Below, piece after piece: positions 9,995-28,155 of a DNA stretch of 64,000 nucleotides; position 1 is the first letter of the stretch, and every line of letters starts with the position of its first letter. The notes beneath the pieces were generated by a model that worked only from the letters and a program-made list of their open reading frames with translations, had not been told where the DNA came from and did not search any database. A program made the translations under genes and the position numbers. Origin of the DNA: Octopus vulgaris (taxonomy: Eukaryota); contig OX597839.1 of the NCBI GenBank assembly GCA_951406725.2, forward strand, positions 32,922,001 through 32,986,000, read 5' to 3'.

Positions 9995-10331
9995 CTATGA
10001 CCCCTTTCAGTCATGAATGACCATGGGATTGCACCTAGAAATTTACCCTCCGAAGCACAAGTCCGGGCAATGTTGTTTATGGAAGACCAGCAGTCGCGCA
10101 TGCATATCAGCCTCTCTTCTCCATGCCACTGATGTTATCCAAGGGAAAGGCAAAGGGTTCGATACAGCTTGGCACCAGTCATGTCGCAACTCATTTCTAC
10201 AGCTGAGTGAACTGGAGCAACGTGAAATAAAGTGTCTTGCTCAAGAACACAACATGCAACCTGGCCCGGGAATTGAACTCACAACCTCACGATCGTAAAC
10301 TCGACGCTCTAACCACTGAGCCATACACCTT

Positions 10332-17958: not shown

Positions 17959-18177
17959 CAGTGGTTTTCAACCAGGGTTCTGCGGAACCTTAGGGTTCCG
18001 CTAGTACAGTCCAGGGGTTCCACAAGAAGTTACAAAACTGCTAAAATCGGCAGTAATTTTTAATTCTCCTGTGCAGATATTTGTGCATAAAACTATTAAA
18101 TTATTGCACAGGGGTTCCCCAAGCCAGTGGAATGTTTCCTTGGGATTCCACTCCAGCAAAAAGGTTGAAAAGCACTG
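17959..18177. mobile_element. hAT-type MITE inserted in a SINE head
   Basis: TIRs cagtggttttcaacc / ggttgaaaagcactg with perfect 8-bp TSD ggttagag. Confidence 0.9.
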
Positions 18178-18323
18178 GGTTAGAGCATCGGACTCACAAT
18201 CATGAGGTAGTGAGTTTGATTCCTGGACTGGGCTGTGTGTTGTGTTCTTGAACAAGACACTTTATTTCATGCTGCTTTGAATTAATCCTGCATTATTTAG
18301 TAGCTTCACGATTAATATAATGT

Positions 18324-21418: not shown

Positions 21419-22175
21419 TAGCTGTGGAATTGGTAGTGAATAGGTGATGGTAGTGCTGCTGCTGCCGATGGGGATGTCGATAATGTTGGTGGTGGTGGTG
21501 GTGATAGTAGTGGTAGTGGTGGTGGTGGTGCTATTGTTGTTGTTGTTAAGCAACAAGGCGGGTAAGGGTGATAAGGTGATGGTCTAAGGGCTTAGGGGCG
21601 GGAGACCCCAGACCTTAGAAAAAAACAAAAAAAACTTTGGTCGTCTTGTTGTAGTCGAGGGCTCTTCGTTGACGCCTGACACCACTGGGAGGTGGCCCTC
21701 GAAGTCGCTGGGAATGGAGATCTCCAGGTCCAAATTCTTGAACGGCTACTGTGGCTCTTGGAAGCGATAGTCGTGGTGGTGGTGTTGGAGGAGGTAGCTG
21801 TTGTGTTTGTCAGTTGATGTAAAGAGTATATCACATGATTCACTACCAAAAGTTGCCAAATTTCCCTCAAAACACAGCAGTGTCAGAAAAATATATTAAA
21901 GAAAAGGAGTTTGGCTTGGGTAAACTGATTCATTAGACATGTCATTACAGCCTCAAGTCCCAGGACCCATAGGGACCAATTACCCAAATTCCTTGGCATA
22001 TAAGGGACCAAAACCACAACTCTCCCTCTGAATGGAATGCCAGTTTGCCACACATGGTTACTAATTTACAGCTGAGTGGACTGAGCAACATGGAATTGAT
22101 TTATGCAGTAACATAATGCAGTGCCCGATCCAGGAATTGAGACCACAATCTTATAATCACGTGTGCCTTCATTTA

Positions 22176-22700
22176 ATGGATAAAATCGGGTATAGCTGAA
22201 AAATGGAGACCACCTCCCTCTGTGGGATGAAGTTTGAAATAATAGACAGAGAACACGGTTGGAAAATACGAAAGCTAAAAGAAGCAGCACATATGCTAGG
22301 ACACAACAACCTCCTAAGCAGACCAAGTGCAGATATGAGTGGCATATGGGAACCAGTATTAGGGAAGGATAGAAAAATATTAAATTTATAAGCCCTAAAA
22401 TTAACTCCGTAGTTGCCCACGGGCATATGGCGCAGTGGGTAAAAGTGCGGGCTACTAAACCCAAGATTCCGAGTTCGATTCCAGGCAATGATCTGAATAA
22501 TAATAATTTACATCAAATGAGAACCCAGGTTTGAAATTTCCCCAAAGACACCTGATGAAGGCTGGAGGGTACATCAGCCGAAACATTGTGTTAACAACAA
22601 ACAAGATGAGGACAAATATCTGTCAAATGTAAATAATGTAAATAATGTAAATAAACTGTGATATATCAACCATGAAAACTAAAAGAAGCAGCACATGGTG
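22176..22700 (+). mobile_element. Penelope-like element 3' fragment: GIY-YIG C-terminus + pLTR with tRNA-like module and hammerhead
   Basis: Frameshift-corrected KSGIA..KNGDHLPLWDEV-EIIDREHGWKIRKLKEAAHMLGHNNLLSRPSADMSGIWEPVL. A box 22428-22438, B box 22471-22482, HHR 22547-22592. Partial tandem restart (ctaaaagaagcagcacat) at ~22679. Confidence 0.8.
22547..22592 (+). ncRNA. Minimal type-I hammerhead ribozyme motif
   Basis: GACAC-CTGATGA-A-GGCTG(loop)CAGCC-GAAAC-ATT-GTGTT; ATT is probably CpG decay of GTT. Confidence 0.75.
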
Positions 22701-23792
22701 GGAAAGGACCTACAAATGTTGGGATTCATAAAGGGGATGACAGGGAAGCAAGACTCCTGGTGTTAATTAAAAGTGGTTACCCTTGCATACAGGCTTGTCC
22801 TGTTGAGCATTTCTAATCTTGTGGGTCGTGAGTGTTGGTACCAGGTAAAAGCATCCGTACTGGTGCTACAAAAAAAGCACCCAGTACATTCTGTAAAGTG
22901 GTTGGTACTAGGAAGGGACCCAAACTGATGGTCAGCTCCATGCCTAACCAGAAGTCCCTTCTCAGCTTGAAAGCTAACCTGCAGTGAATGTCCCTGTCCA
23001 CAGTTTGTCTGCTATGAGTTCCTGACAGAGCTCTACACTGTACCTTTGAAATGCTTTCAAAGATATTTAAACATGAGTGCTAAATATCAAACTTTAACAA
23101 TGAAATACTGTGAAAATGCAAAACAAATTATTTTAAACAGTATGCAGGTTGATTTTTTGAAATATTTGCTTATTTGCTGTCACCGGAAAGTTCCTGTAAC
23201 AGGCTGTGGCTGATAATGTGTTAAATACTGAAATATAATCGGTATTTTCCAGGGAAAAGTTTTCCTGAGACAAAATTCTACAGCAAATGCTATTTCCCTG
23301 TTTAAGTGTGCAGACACGTTATGAATTGATGTCTGCCTCATTATTTCAATCCTCACTGCTTTGTGTACATAGAATGATTTAACAACAGCTTGGCAAGACT
23401 CTGCCCACAACCTTTCTGCTATAGGCACAAGGCCTGAAATTATGGGGGGAGGGGGTCCAGTTGATTTGATTGATCCCAGTATGCAATTGGTATGTAATTT
23501 ACTGACCGCGAAAAGATGAAAGGCAAAGTCGACCTAGATGGAATTTTAACTCAGGATGTAGCGCAGATGAAATACCGCTAAGCATTTCATTCGGTGTGCT
23601 AACCATTCTACCAGCTCAATGTTTTAAGACTTTGCACACATCACCAAATATTTTGATGATGATGACTAAGATGACGATGATGATGAGGATGATTGCAATG
23701 AAAATGATGATGATGATAATGATGAGGAAGAGAAAGATAACGATGAAGATGATGATGAGGCTGATCTTGGAAATGATGACAATGATTTTTAA

Positions 23793-24012
23793 CCCTTTTG
23801 CTACTGTATTTATTTTGAAATGCTCTGTGTTTCTTTCAGTTACTTTAAATATTACAAAGAATTTAGTAAAATAACTTAGTTATCATTCAGCTAGTGTTAG
23901 GAACATAAATTGTGACTAAGGTTTGGTGGAAGATTTTAATTCAGAACTGATGAAAACAAGACATTTGTACTCAGAGCCAGAGCTGGTTTCAGCTGGGTTG
24001 GTATTGAAAGGG
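23793..24012. mobile_element. TTAA-flanked piggyBac-like MITE
   Basis: TTAA-CCCTTT...AAAGGG-TTAA; same family at 24044-24263, 28707-28927, 63041-63250. Confidence 0.85.
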
Positions 24013-24043
24013 TTAAGAATTGTTTCTTTATTATATATTTTAA

Positions 24044-24263
24044 CCCTTTCGCTACTGTGTTTATCTTGAGATGCTCTGTGTTTCTTTCAGTTACTTTAAA
24101 TATAACAAAGAATTTAGTAAAATAACTTAGTTATCATTAAGCTAGTGTTAGGAACATAAATTGTGACTAAGATTTGGTGGAAGATTTTAATTCAAAACTT
24201 AAGAAAATAAGACATTTGTACTCAGAGCCAGAGCCGGTTTCAGCCGGGTTGGTAACAAAAGGG
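24044..24263. mobile_element. TTAA-flanked piggyBac-like MITE
   Basis: TTAA-CCCTTT...AAAGGG-TTAA. Confidence 0.85.
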
Positions 24264-24904
24264 TTAAGACTGCTTGCTCCGGGCTTAAACTGCAGGAGTT
24301 GCTCTGAGGCACAACAATATTCAAACAACAGCATGATCAAATACCTGTTGGGTGCAATTTACCCTTAATGTAAAGCACAGGTGGACTTTGGGTAGCACTG
24401 TGTCGAATGGTGTGTAACATGGCTGACCCTGGGGAATTACTGGTAGGGTGTATGTTGTACAACAGTGGTTTTTGAATATTCCACAGACGTTGGTATTGTT
24501 AATGCAATCCCTTCCGGTGGCGGGTAGATTCAGGGTGGCAAATGTGAGATAAAACTTAAGAAAATAAGACATTTGTACTCAGAGCCAGAGCCGGTTTCAG
24601 CCGGGTTGGTAACAAAAGGGTTAAGACTGCTTGCTCCGGGCTTAAACTGCAGGAGTTGCTCTGAGGCACAACAATATTCAAACAACAGCATGATCAAATA
24701 CCTGTTGGGTGCAATTTACCTAATGTAAAGCACAGGTGGACTTTGGGTAGCACTGTGTCGAATGGTGTGTAACATGGCTGACCCTGGGGAATTACTGGTA
24801 GGGTGTATGTTGTACAACAGTGGTTTTTGAATATTCCACAGACGTTGGTATTGTTAATGCAATCCCTTCCGGTGGCGGGTAGATTCAGGGTGGCAAATGT
24901 GAGA
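24194..24904. repeat. Near-identical ~357-bp tandem duplication
   Basis: aaaacttaagaaaataagac...gggtggcaaatgtgaga occurs twice (from ~24194 and ~24551). Confidence 0.92.
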
Positions 24905-26572
24905 ATGTTGTCTCACACACACACACACACACACAGACATACATGCATAAAGAGCACACACTCATAAACATACACGTACACTAGCAGACATTTGCACACA
25001 CACATACACACGCACAGACATCCACAAACACACAGCTACACACGCATACACAAACACACACAGACACATGCATAAAGACACACATTCACGAAGATACACA
25101 CGCCTACACATATGAACACCAAGACATGCACATACACACGTAAACTTATGCATAGAATGACACACGCACAAACACACACATGTACACAGACAAACACACA
25201 CACACACACACACACATTTGCACAGACAGCCACAGGTATGTAATTCTATTACCTGGACAGGTAAAAAGATAGCAGCAATCTAGTGGCAGCAGCAGGTGGC
25301 TAGTGAGTTGATTACCGACCAGAAAACAAGGGTATCTCAGGTTTTTTAGGTCAGTGGAAAGAAAAGATAACATCTAGGGTGGAAATGCCAGGGTGGAGCA
25401 GATGGGGAGGGATTGGGGTAAGAGATAGAGTGAGGGGAGAAGAGAGGGGAAGACAGTAGTATGCGTGAGTGTGTTGAGTGTGTACGCAGAGACAGGATGT
25501 TTCCAAGATACACACACACACACACACACACACAGATAATAATTATATATATATGTATATAGCTATATATATCATTTCATCATCATCATCATTGCTTAAT
25601 GTCCACTTTCCATGCTGGCATGGGTTGGATGGTTTAACTGAGGACTGGCAAGCTAGGAGGCTGCACCAGGCTTCAATCTGATCTGTCAAGGTTTCTATGG
25701 CTGGAGGCTCTTCCTGACACCATATATAGGCACAAATCTAATTCTTTTTTCCCCAAATAAATTGCACTTCATATTTCCTGGATCCAATAAAGCTGTAGGA
25801 TGTTATTCGGGCACTCAACTATGGGTCCACTGCATCTTATAACCGAAACAGCTGTAAGCTAATGAAGATCATAACATAACTACTGTTTTTTCCGGTGTCA
25901 TCACTTTTTCTTATACAATTATATATATAATATCATCATCATCGTTTAACATCCACTTTCCATCCATACACACACACACACGGCTGCCGTTATGTTCTGA
26001 GTTCAAATTCTGCTGAGATTGACTTTGCCTTTCGTCCTTTCGGGGTCAGTAAATTAAGTACAATTTGAATACTGGGGTTGATGTAATCAACTGACCCCCG
26101 CCTTCCCTCAAATTCCAGGCCTTGTGCCGAAAGTAGAAAGGATTATGTTACAAGTCAATGGGGTTGAAGTGACCCCCCAAATGGATTTAATAATAAAGCG
26201 ATTTTTTTCCTTATCTGTTCAATATTTAATTAATTCATAACAGATGCAGATCAGGCTAGTTATGGGTTTTTATTATCTCGTTTCTTCGGTTGCATGTGGT
26301 TAATCAATATAAAGAAACAGAAACCAATTAAAATTTTATGTGGCTGCCATGTAGTAAGACATCTGCTTCCCTACCTGATGGCTTTGGGTTCAGTCCCACT
26401 GTGTGGCACCTTGGGCAAGTGTCTTTTACGATAGCACTGAGCCGACAAAAGACTTGTGAGTGGATTTGGTAGATGGAAACAGAATTAAGTGCATTGTGTG
26501 TGGATATATCTATCTATCTATCCACTTGTCTATCTATCTGTCTGTCTGTCTATCTATCTATCCACTTGTCTA

Positions 26573-26606
<34 letters not shown>

Positions 26607-26637
26607 CACTTGTCTATCTGTCTGTTATCTATCTATC

Positions 26638-26685
<48 letters not shown>

Positions 26686-26692
26686 AAGCATA

Positions 26693-26950
26693 TGTGAGCT
26701 GGTATTAAGGAAAGATAGGAAAATATTAAATTTATAAGTCCTAAAATTCACTCCATAATTGCCCACATGCATATGGCATAGTGGTTAAGAGCGTGGGCTA
26801 CGAACCCCAAGATTCCGAATTCAATTCCTGAACAATAATAATAACGTCGAAAATATCTTAGGAATGGGAATCCAGGTTCGAAATCTCTCCAAGACACCTG
26901 ATGAAGGCTGGAGGGTATATCAGCCAAAATATTGTGCTAACAACAAACAA
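26693..26950 (+). mobile_element. Second, more decayed copy of the Penelope pLTR (tRNA-like module + hammerhead)
   Basis: Collinear with 22350-22605; HHR 26893-26938 with GAAAC mutated to AAAAT. Confidence 0.8.
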
Positions 26951-27650: not shown

Positions 27651-27767
27651 TTAATATACCCCCTAATTTAGGCATTAACATGTGTATTAACCCATTAAGT
27701 CCCAGATACTTATATTTCTGAATATTACTTTTAAATTTTTACAACAGATTGAAAATAGGTTAAAATA

Positions 27768-28155
27768 ATATACCCACTAATTTATGCATTAATGTGTGTA
27801 TTAATGTACCCCCTAATTTATGCATTAATGTGTGTATTAATGTACCCCCTAATTTATGCATTAATGTGTGTATTAATGTACCCCCTAATTTATGCATTAA
27901 TGTGTGTATTAATGTACCCCTAATTTATGCATTAATGTGTGTATTAATGTACCCCCTAATTTATGCATTAATGTGTGTATTAATGTACCCCCTAATTTAT
28001 GCATTAATGTGTGTATTAATGTACCCCCTAATTTATGCATTAATGTGTGTATTAATGTACCCCCTAATTTATGCATTAATGTGTGTATTAATGTACCCCC
28101 TAATTTATGCATTAATGTGTGTATTAATGTACCCCCTAATTTAGGCATTAATATC
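27768..28155. repeat. 36-bp minisatellite, ~10 copies
   Basis: Unit taatgtgtgtattaatgtaccccctaatttatgcat. Confidence 0.95.

Follow-up and report, generated by a model that had tools for sequence, protein, structure and literature searches.

A tRNA-derived head with Pol III boxes in the pLTR of an octopus Penelope/Poseidon family

Main finding

A tRNA-derived head with canonical Pol III A and B boxes is a family-wide component of the pLTR of an octopus Penelope/Poseidon-type element, in which it lies between the end of the coding sequence and a minimal hammerhead. Two copies of this arrangement are present in the window, i.e. the whole stretch of 64,000 nucleotides analyzed here, and all features described below are located on its forward (+) strand.

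The explanation favored here, with moderate confidence, is that a captured tRNA or SINE head has been amplified as a passenger in the Penelope/Poseidon element. The capture would have occurred once, in the 3′ UTR of an ancestral octopus element, 29 nt past the stop codon, and its source would be a tRNA-derived sequence tailed by (AAT)n, either a simple SINE head or a tRNA retrocopy. Since the pLTR consists of the 3′ UTR and the start of the ORF of the next unit, the head would thereby come to lie upstream of the ATG (by 96 nt) and of the hammerhead core (by ∼130 nt). The RT-endonuclease of the element would begin cDNA ∼50 codons into the ORF-start repeat and copy leftwards, which would generate many 5′-truncated copies, among which the tail is commonest, followed by the hammerhead and then the head. 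The full-length mRNA most likely still originates from Pol II, and the intact boxes would give rise at most to a short Pol III RNA (head, hammerhead and ORF start) as a by-product. Cleavage by the minimal hammerhead of such an RNA would require dimerization or the protein of the element.

Two truncated ends of a Penelope/Poseidon element

Sequence comparison identifies both loci as 5′-truncated 3′ ends of the octopus element. Copy 1 (22177..22654) comprises the coding end and the pLTR. The family depth is confined to ∼22183-22665 in all four runs, and the copy lacks the last ∼24 nt of the family, with loose ends behind 22646-22654 in the read and contig mapping. Copy 2 (26688..26950), also a 3′ end of this family, is shorter and more decayed, and retains the last ORF codons, the head (26767-26839), the ATG (26864) and the hammerhead (26893-26938). 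The two copies share 79.8% identity over 272 columns and an identical order of parts, in agreement with the first-pass annotation, which had placed a second copy with the same order at 26693-26950. They are separate truncated insertions and not two pLTRs of one element, since a distance of 4 kb, which includes other repeats, separates them and tblastn finds no other PLE coding match in the window.

The coding end of copy 1 (22176..22391) corresponds to a GIY-YIG endonuclease C-terminus matched by tblastn in two frames. Two lesions interrupt it, namely a deletion of 11 nt after 22197 and one additional base at 22235/6, and it terminates with the TAA at 22389-22391, the stop previously noted at 22391. 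The 22200-22388 segment is 80% identical to the Octopus vulgaris protein P0001 over 73% of the length (E 1.7e-14). Relatives of P0001 contain RVT_1, then a GIY-YIG-type C-terminus, and the window peptide aligns to the C-terminus of P0002-P0004, all RVT_1-bearing, which places the GIY-YIG part after the RT. The RT domain itself is absent from the window. Pfam detects no domain in the window peptide, the GIY-YIG domain included; the latter is read from the motifs CIYSIPC-x-C-x2-YKG, R, H and E.

The element displays the features of the Penelope/Poseidon group, namely a pLTR with hammerhead, 5′ truncation, an inverted truncated partner and an optional 3′ tail. A DKG motif and an RT-EN linker without an extra Zn-finger, which distinguish this group from Naiad, Neptune and Nematis (PMC8557442), were recognized by eye in the RT of the relatives P0004, P0013 and P0023, and hence in relatives rather than in the whole RT of the octopus family itself. 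An exact search for the hammerhead stretch in viral, metagenome and prokaryote contigs gave 0 matches, and protein-based locus searches of contig collections gave no relative.

The tRNA-derived head and its Pol III boxes

The head of copy 1 (22421..22493) is tRNA-derived and has the full length of a tRNA (73 nt), although its stems are decayed, and is tentatively closest to tRNA-Arg(ACG). With a profile of 50 distinct tRNA-Arg(ACG) sequences, the two best places in the window are 22421-22488 (E 3.3e-7) and 26771-26830 (E 7.1e-4). The alignment score of the head is 77 against tRNA-Arg, compared with 44-58 or less against the seven other SINE heads of the window. The A box is located at 22428..22438, where it reads TGGCGCAGTGG in copy 1 and TGGCGTAGTGG in the family majority, and the B box, GTTCGATTCC, at 22473..22482, with no differing row among the 40 of 118 listed. 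In copy 2, the B box has decayed to ATTCAATTCC. Pairs of A and B boxes at tRNA spacing occur twice in the window (at 22428 and in an unrelated SINE head), compared with an average of 0.03 in 100 shuffles, which supports the A and B boxes initially proposed after the stop codon. In all four runs (two DNA and two RNA), the boxes A and B spelled by the majority letters are canonical, so that a consensus devoid of conserved boxes, named at the outset as grounds for abandoning the module, is not what is found. As in SINE2 elements, a tRNA-derived head thus carries both boxes.

The head is not a tRNA gene, as an intact cloverleaf is absent. ARAGORN reports 0 tRNAs and misses the head, Rfam matches neither head nor hammerhead, and the head's own fold is no better than that of shuffles (z +1.8). 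In copy 1, 2/7, 0/3, 2/5 and 3/5 of the stem pairs are formed. In the family majority, 8 of the 17 acceptor, anticodon and T-stem pairs survive while the boxes are intact, a combination that implies selection on the promoter at some stage, before or after capture, and weighs against the passenger explanation. A comparison of identity to tRNA-Arg within the boxes and in the rest (18/21 versus 30/52, p 0.03) was set aside because every tRNA has such boxes and the search pattern itself included the A box.

The head is followed by an (AAT)n tract of variable length that resembles a SINE tail (22496..22507), with loose ends behind 22507 in all four runs. No free parent SINE was found in the window or in the 124 metagenome loci searched, and the spaced tRNA motif gave 0 matches in viral contigs. 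Three weak tRNA matches of the head to phages (E 2-7) were discounted. In the sister family, the upstream region, back-translated in two frames, has no tRNA profile match (293 of 1,000 shuffles score as well), which would be in line with a family-specific capture. One A-box-like word, one base short, is present in that region.

The head as a family feature

Statements about the family rest on a single mapping onto 22120-22720 (30,925 and 26,748 contigs; 9,381 and 7,178 RNA reads), in which contig depth does not equate with copy number and is skewed locally by mismatches in the window copy. Two insect metagenome runs with shares of 0.04-0.06 were left out of this mapping and count as no evidence. 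Among the 16 of 58,128 pieces listed, six, all of them single-locus contigs, begin in the coding part at 22342 or earlier and continue beyond the A box, and one more enters the A box. Both window copies likewise extend upstream of the head into coding sequence. No joint that skips the head at its borders occurs among the 15 of 130 joints listed, and no cluster of loose ends at 22413-22421 among the 24 of 1,457 loose ends listed. With these contigs, the majority boxes and no head-less form among the pieces listed, the initial view of the head as a family feature rather than a local insertion is upheld.

DNA depth rises ×3.6 and ×2.6 from the coding end to the B box, and ×3.6 and ×3.3 from the B box to the tail, a steady gradient without an extra step, and the profile reveals no excess of copies beginning at the head. 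The B-box depth, below that of the hammerhead and above that of the coding part, is as for a fixed part of the element. This pattern makes it very improbable that the head is a free SINE confined to a minor subfamily of which both window copies are members, even though head and (AAT)n tract together resemble a SINE, and the 1,433 loose ends and 115 joints beyond those listed could include head-less ends or free heads. The same reading is opposed by the independent contigs that link the coding end to the head, by P0053, in which the head start is joined to the hammerhead at another locus, and by the lack of any match to the other SINEs of the window. A free SINE with its own TSD had been cited beforehand as a possible refutation; no TSD of at least 6 nt surrounds the head in either copy.

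Ten of the 15 joints listed among 130 are opposite-strand joints into 22544-22616, seven of them in DNA contigs, with the other side of the joint in the coding end or UTR. Such joints match the pattern of inverted 5′-truncated copies (PMC8557442, section 6).

Hammerhead and ORF start

The minimal type I hammerhead of copy 1 (22547..22592), recognized by motif match, comprises a stem I of 5 bp, CUGAUGA at 22552-58, an unpaired A, a stem II of 6 bp and GAAA at 22580-83. It is devoid of helix III and is predicted to cut after 22587, consistent with the hammerhead and the cut at ∼22587 already placed after the head at first pass. The minimal-HHR motif has one match in the window (22552) and 0 in 30 shuffles. 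In the family majority, the min-HHR core (CUGANGA, GAAA, helix I of 4-5 bp and a long helix II) is accompanied by an unpaired base after A9 and the palindromic 15.2-16.2 (ACGU), with G at 22585 in 69-72% of the DNA depth. Both window ribozymes are damaged, judging from their letters: copy 1 has lost the ACGU palindrome (ACAU, broken at 22585) and copy 2 has G12 changed to A. No pile-up of read ends is seen at 22587 in the two RNA runs. The same is reported for the anole element (PMC11167929).

A frame that starts at ATG 22517 and passes through the hammerhead (22517..22654) has protein matches, including P0031. It probably represents the first ∼50 codons of the ORF of the element, duplicated in the pLTR, which would put the head at the promoter position of the pLTR. 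In copy 1 the frame carries one extra base at 22544. In P0031, a natural copy from O. bimaculoides, it stays open across the hammerhead, from M as far as SSSLKYR, and the full-length relative P0013 has SSQKYR at residue 16. The match is short: 447, 46, 221 and 301 of 1,000 shuffles reach its score against the whole of P0013, and 27, 0, 3 and 5 of 1,000 against only the first 30 residues. A word-index search with the ORF-start peptide gave nothing, while a HMMER scan gave 42 matches, of which P0038, P0043, P0046 and P0052 were dismissed by eye as unrelated repeats. The anole element has the same layout, with an RT start 111-118 nt into its ORF (PMC11167929).

Within this frame, a second B-box-like word is found at 22528..22536 (GGTTTGAAA in copy 1, GGTTCGAAA in copy 2 and the family majority). 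The word reported at first pass is therefore present, with the letters of copy 2 and the majority, but it is not a canonical B box, as the closing C is missing. It seems better read as part of the ORF-start frame. The V-R codons from which the word arises are present in 6 of the 26 translations that could be scored. An origin as a second tRNA remnant was rejected (E 0.67 in copy 2 with the tRNA profile).

Transcription and tandem units

RNA depth increases from 22412 to 22433 by ×1.95 and ×2.74. This step is compatible with copies or transcripts beginning at the head, and also with alignment clipping at three nearby mismatches. In the former case, the head could be a working Pol III promoter under selection, and an RNA of ∼250 nt with the hammerhead and the RT start region would be copied in trans by the PLE protein into SINE-like copies beginning at the head. 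This is considered rather doubtful. The boxes are indeed canonical despite the decayed stems, and no TTTT terminator separates the head from the end of the element in either copy, but such an absence is expected by chance (1,175 and 1,394 of 2,000 shuffles also lack it). In the Drosophila pLTR, a TATA-less Pol II-type internal promoter is described at the position upstream of the ORF that the head occupies here (PMC2377424), and for the anole protein a template with the first 172 nt of the ORF suffices (PMC11167929). On the other hand, DNA depth has no step at the head, and no pile-up of RNA starts or ends is visible in the two RNA runs, which are poorly suited cDNA libraries with 6% read and both directions equal.

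Tandem hammerhead units also argue against a working promoter. One head-to-tail joint of 147 nt attests them in the family, with the tRNA head left out, and units of 126-129 nt exist in the sister family. No RNA back-joint occurs among the 15 of 130 joints listed, from a library unsuited to circular RNA. The first-pass annotation had envisaged short self-cleaving, possibly circular RNAs able to seed SINE-like retrozymes. This idea is not sustained by the data, in which there is neither an RNA pile-up nor a DNA excess and the tandem units seen are head-less; the RNA ends sought near 22421 or ∼22587 do not appear in these poorly suited libraries. It is unlikely that the family is a coding Penelope family with an active tRNA-type Pol III promoter in its pLTR, each copy of which can launch PLE-dependent SINE-like progeny.

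Extra-TFIIIC sites can act as insulators and are not known to need an A box. The B box could accordingly bind TFIIIC without transcription and serve as an insulator or as a helper of the Pol II promoter of the element, a role compatible with conserved boxes, with a head 96 nt before the ATG and with no small RNA start detected. The A box is conserved too, however, and such a role is judged improbable. Amplification of the captured head as a passenger remains the preferred explanation.

Significance

Known SINEs have LINEs as their described partners, and it is in non-autonomous LTR elements that terminal repeats with Pol III modules have been recognized. Here, a coding PLE family represented by thousands of contigs combines a tRNA head, a hammerhead and an RT start region within 250 nt, an arrangement that is directly testable and bears on the origin of Pol III-driven hammerhead elements (Sm-alpha) and on retrozyme transcription. 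An active promoter would make the family the PLE counterpart of Cassandra/Helenus, and would make visible a route by which an autonomous PLE can give rise to Sm-alpha-like elements and to non-coding PLE parasites that bear a tRNA. Should the head be a passenger only, the case still cautions that PLE ends of this kind may be mistaken for tRNA SINEs in annotation.

Comparison with known systems

Minimal hammerheads in PLE pLTRs have been described by Cervera and de la Pena in 2014 (PMC4209133). According to the available parts of that article and of the report on Anolis Poseidon (PMC11167929), Penelope/Poseidon PLEs share with the octopus element an RT followed by a C-terminal GIY-YIG, 5′ truncation and inverted truncated partners. 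They also share a min-HHR with a short helix I, a longer helix II, an unpaired base after A9 and a palindromic 15.2-16.2, as well as a hammerhead that overlaps the ORF start and an element end within the first ∼50 codons. In the octopus element, the pLTR additionally contains a tRNA-derived head of full length with its A and B boxes, which the available parts of both articles do not mention, and literature searches found no published report of a tRNA-type Pol III head in a PLE pLTR.

The Schistosoma elements Sm-alpha and Sj-alpha likewise combine a Pol III-type promoter with a type I hammerhead downstream. According to a review (PMC6765202), these SINE-like elements are non-coding, often tandem and equipped with canonical active ribozymes, whereas the octopus module belongs to the pLTR of a coding PLE, its ribozyme is minimal and its use of Pol III is putative. 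The window copies further differ from Sm-alpha and retrozymes in being single and coding-linked.

A small-RNA-derived Pol III module in the terminal repeat of a retroelement is also found in Helenus, Ajax and Cassandra (TRIMp3; Kojima 2024, PMC10886601), for which insertion of a SINE into the terminal repeat is the proposed origin. These LTR elements are non-autonomous and contain a PBS and a PPT, and their autonomous partners are argued not to share the module (PMC10886601); in octopus, the module is joined to a PLE coding end. Finally, animal non-LTR retrozymes (PMC7229834; bioRxiv 10.64898/2026.07.22.740005) have tandem pLTR-derived hammerhead units in common with the octopus family, in which the window copies are monomers with coding sequence and the tandem units seen exclude the tRNA head.

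Two truncated copies of one Penelope-like element

The window carries two separate, 5'-truncated 3' ends of a single Penelope-like element (PLE) family, copy 1 at ~22177-22654 and copy 2 at 26688-26950, which share 79.8% identity over 272 alignment columns; these are the two stretches named in the first-pass annotation. No further PLE coding sequence was found elsewhere in the window. The coding end of copy 1 closes with a stop codon at 22389-22391, and the peptide upstream of it is an 80% match to an Octopus vulgaris protein; in its longer relatives, a GIY-YIG-type C-terminus comes after the reverse transcriptase, and, as judged by eye, there is a DKG motif and no linker Zn-finger. The latter two traits are clade criteria used in the available text of PMC8557442 and, applied by eye without a tree, point to a placement in the Penelope/Poseidon clade. 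The named protein matches (P0001, P0006, P0031 and P0053) are all from Octopus.

One contig of run X1 crosses the left junction (22120-22288) without gaps and with 9 differences over 169 nt, so that the same insertion, deletion included, is present in a genome diverged by ~5%. Just past the 3' end of copy 1, 22674-22696 is a 23-nt near-copy (22/23) of coding positions 22270-22292, locus-specific as judged by depth. Elsewhere, a ~350-nt stretch is duplicated locally in tandem (24030-24540 and 24550-24900), and 27760-28150 is a minisatellite array of ~10 units of 38 nt.

A tRNA-derived head in the terminal repeat

A 73-nt stretch, the head (22421-22493), starts 29 bases downstream of the stop; its A and B boxes start at 22428 and 22473. 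The copy 1 head reaches a tRNA score of 77, against at most 47 for its shuffles (500 trials), and its sequence firmly supports a tRNA origin. The isotype, putatively Arg(ACG), is not firm. A spaced motif built from both copies gave 127 matches in metagenome contigs, all 127 called tRNA-Arg(ACG) by ARAGORN, a call that is biased since a presumed resemblance to tRNA-Arg guided the choice of the motif's free positions; the best of these loci align to the head without gaps at 48/73. Against the 23 isotypes drawn from them, the family's majority head (commonest letter per position) scores 75 for Arg(ACG), 72 for Ile(AAT), 71 for Arg(TCG) and 70 for Thr(AGT). For the head itself, neither ARAGORN nor Rfam made a tRNA call.

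In the majority, the cloverleaf has decayed (2/7 acceptor, 3/5 anticodon and 3/5 T pairs); its loss together with two canonical boxes reads as the pattern of a SINE head. An (AAT)n tract lies 3' of the head. A short inverted repeat, TGCCC-AC-GGGCA (22415-22426), spans the 5' border of the head; it may be a scar left by insertion or have arisen by chance.

Heads of another tRNA-derived SINE family lie at 44038-43976, 10325-10266, 44549-44501 and 60059-60004 on the minus strand and at 18175-18231 on the plus strand. In the profile search some of them resemble Ile(AAT), with E 4.5e-6 and 2.1e-5, and the one at 10323 keeps an intact pair of A and B boxes. Identity of the PLE head with one of the window's other SINE heads was ruled out by scores of 32-58 (seven tested).

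The head as a family feature

The main family evidence is one alignment that took in 4 of 24 listed runs, two with DNA contigs and two with RNA reads; the 24 bear four organism labels, besides two insect metagenomes in which the share is small. Tens of thousands of contigs cover the element, and outside ~22183-22665 depth falls to the single-copy level or below. Majority letters are concordant among runs, with TGGCGTAGTGG as A box and an unaltered B box (40 of 118 differing places listed), and in 6 of 16 pieces listed the coding part continues in one piece to beyond the A box. No head-less joint occurs among 15 of 130 joints listed, nor a loose-end cluster at the 5' border of the head among 24 of 1,457 loose ends listed. 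The earlier proposal that the head belongs to the family is upheld by its canonical majority boxes and its junction to the coding part; of the two outcomes named as fatal to it, a free SINE with its own target-site duplication (TSD) and unconserved boxes, neither was observed, no TSD having been found to flank the module.

DNA depth increases 3.6- and 2.6-fold to the B box and 3.6- and 3.3-fold from there to the tail; these depths, which are affected by local mismatches, are not copy numbers, and their steady 3' rise is predicted by 5' truncation. Strand switches into 22544-22616 account for 10 of the 15 joints listed (of 130) and represent the truncated partner copy in inverted orientation that is typical of PLEs (section 6 of PMC8557442). 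By eye, the N-terminus of protein match P0020 resembles a reverse-strand minimal hammerhead immediately before the ORF, that is, an inverted pLTR.

Family reads in the two RNA runs map equally in both directions, mostly at <95% identity to the window. No pile-up of molecule starts or ends was seen in the 6% read of these two cDNA libraries, from which short or circular RNAs would escape. From 22412 to 22433 the RNA depth rises twofold, a step that DNA lacks and that can be explained by individual loci being expressed and by reads being clipped at three mismatched positions. Variants at 22204-22287 reach ~50-60% in RNA and <4% in DNA contigs, which points to a family RNA signal dominated by one or two loci with high expression.

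Hammerhead and tandem units

The sole minimal type I hammerhead detected by scan in the window (22547-22592; 0 in 30 shuffles) has a helix I of 5 bp, a helix II of 6 bp and no helix III, and A9 is followed by an unpaired base. Its majority carries a palindromic ACGU; the palindrome is lost in copy 1 and one core G in copy 2, so both window ribozymes are probably dead. These traits are those given for minimal hammerheads in the available text of PMC4209133, which describes weak cleavage, as dimers; that of PMC11167929 describes cleavage with the element's protein.

An X1 contig joins 22644 back to 22516 via 18 letters, giving a head-to-tail 147-nt unit of ATG, hammerhead and tail whose joint has a depth of 305, roughly fivefold the ~50-60 of single loci. 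This joint runs through AAT repeats and, given the ATT preference of the anole endonuclease (PMC11167929, available text), also fits a new copy inserted in an old pLTR; it is a candidate for an octopus non-LTR retrozyme array or for self-insertion into the AAT tract. In a sister family, the tail motif recurs at 126-129 nt in 4 of 42 translations, and in P0029, P0032-P0035, P0042, P0050, P0051 and P0063 a hammerhead-tail unit of ~115-145 nt is present two or three times in tandem, retrozyme-like; tRNA likeness is not detectable in this family's upstream region. None of these tandem units contains the head.

A probable ORF start at the end of the pLTR

A point absent from the first-pass annotation is that the hammerhead sits inside a reading frame. 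In copy 2 the frame runs open from ATG 26864, and O. bimaculoides protein P0031 is open from the equivalent M across the hammerhead to SSSLKYR; the loose-end consensus past 22646 yields identical residues in frame (by eye). The copy 1 peptide, run with HMMER against 1.84 billion proteins, gave 42 matches, P0031 being one of them; 14 of the 42 end in an SSSLKYR-type motif (regex). In P0013, a relative close to full length, SSQKYR stands at residue 16. For four peptides, 27, 0, 3 and 5 of 1,000 shuffles reach the score against the first 30 residues of P0013, and 447, 46, 221 and 301 against the whole protein, this short match being significant solely against those 30 residues. The second B-box-like word of the first-pass annotation is better read as the Q-V-R-N codons of this frame; the C that closes a B box is missing from it.

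The gene model P0053 (XP_052825882.1, O. bimaculoides 'dystrobrevin beta isoform X1') opens with ~35 residues that are a translation of this element, its head start joined to the hammerhead; a deleted copy thus acts as a first exon here, or was annotated as one.

Origin of the head and comparison with known elements

The reading we favor, with some reserve, is that a tRNA or SINE head was captured, became fixed and multiplied along with the family, its boxes perhaps permitting a short Pol III by-product; Pol III activity of the head is putative. The main rival, a promoter selected inside the element and feeding PLE-dependent SINE-like copies, is considered rather unlikely.

A search of papers yielded no description of a PLE pLTR that bears a tRNA-derived module; a consensus of the family may already have been placed in Repbase, Dfam or the repeat library of O. 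vulgaris. For Sm-alpha, the available text of the review PMC6765202 states Pol III and does not state a tRNA-derived origin, and that of PMC13282606 mentions neither hammerhead nor ribozyme. In the anole element, the ORF begins at the hammerhead and reverse transcription starts 111-118 nt into it (PMC11167929), a layout with which the octopus frame agrees. Taken with the hammerhead-spanning frame and the P0013 match, this layout argues that the octopus pLTR terminates in the ORF start, which would put the head in promoter position, with 96 nt between it and the ATG downstream.
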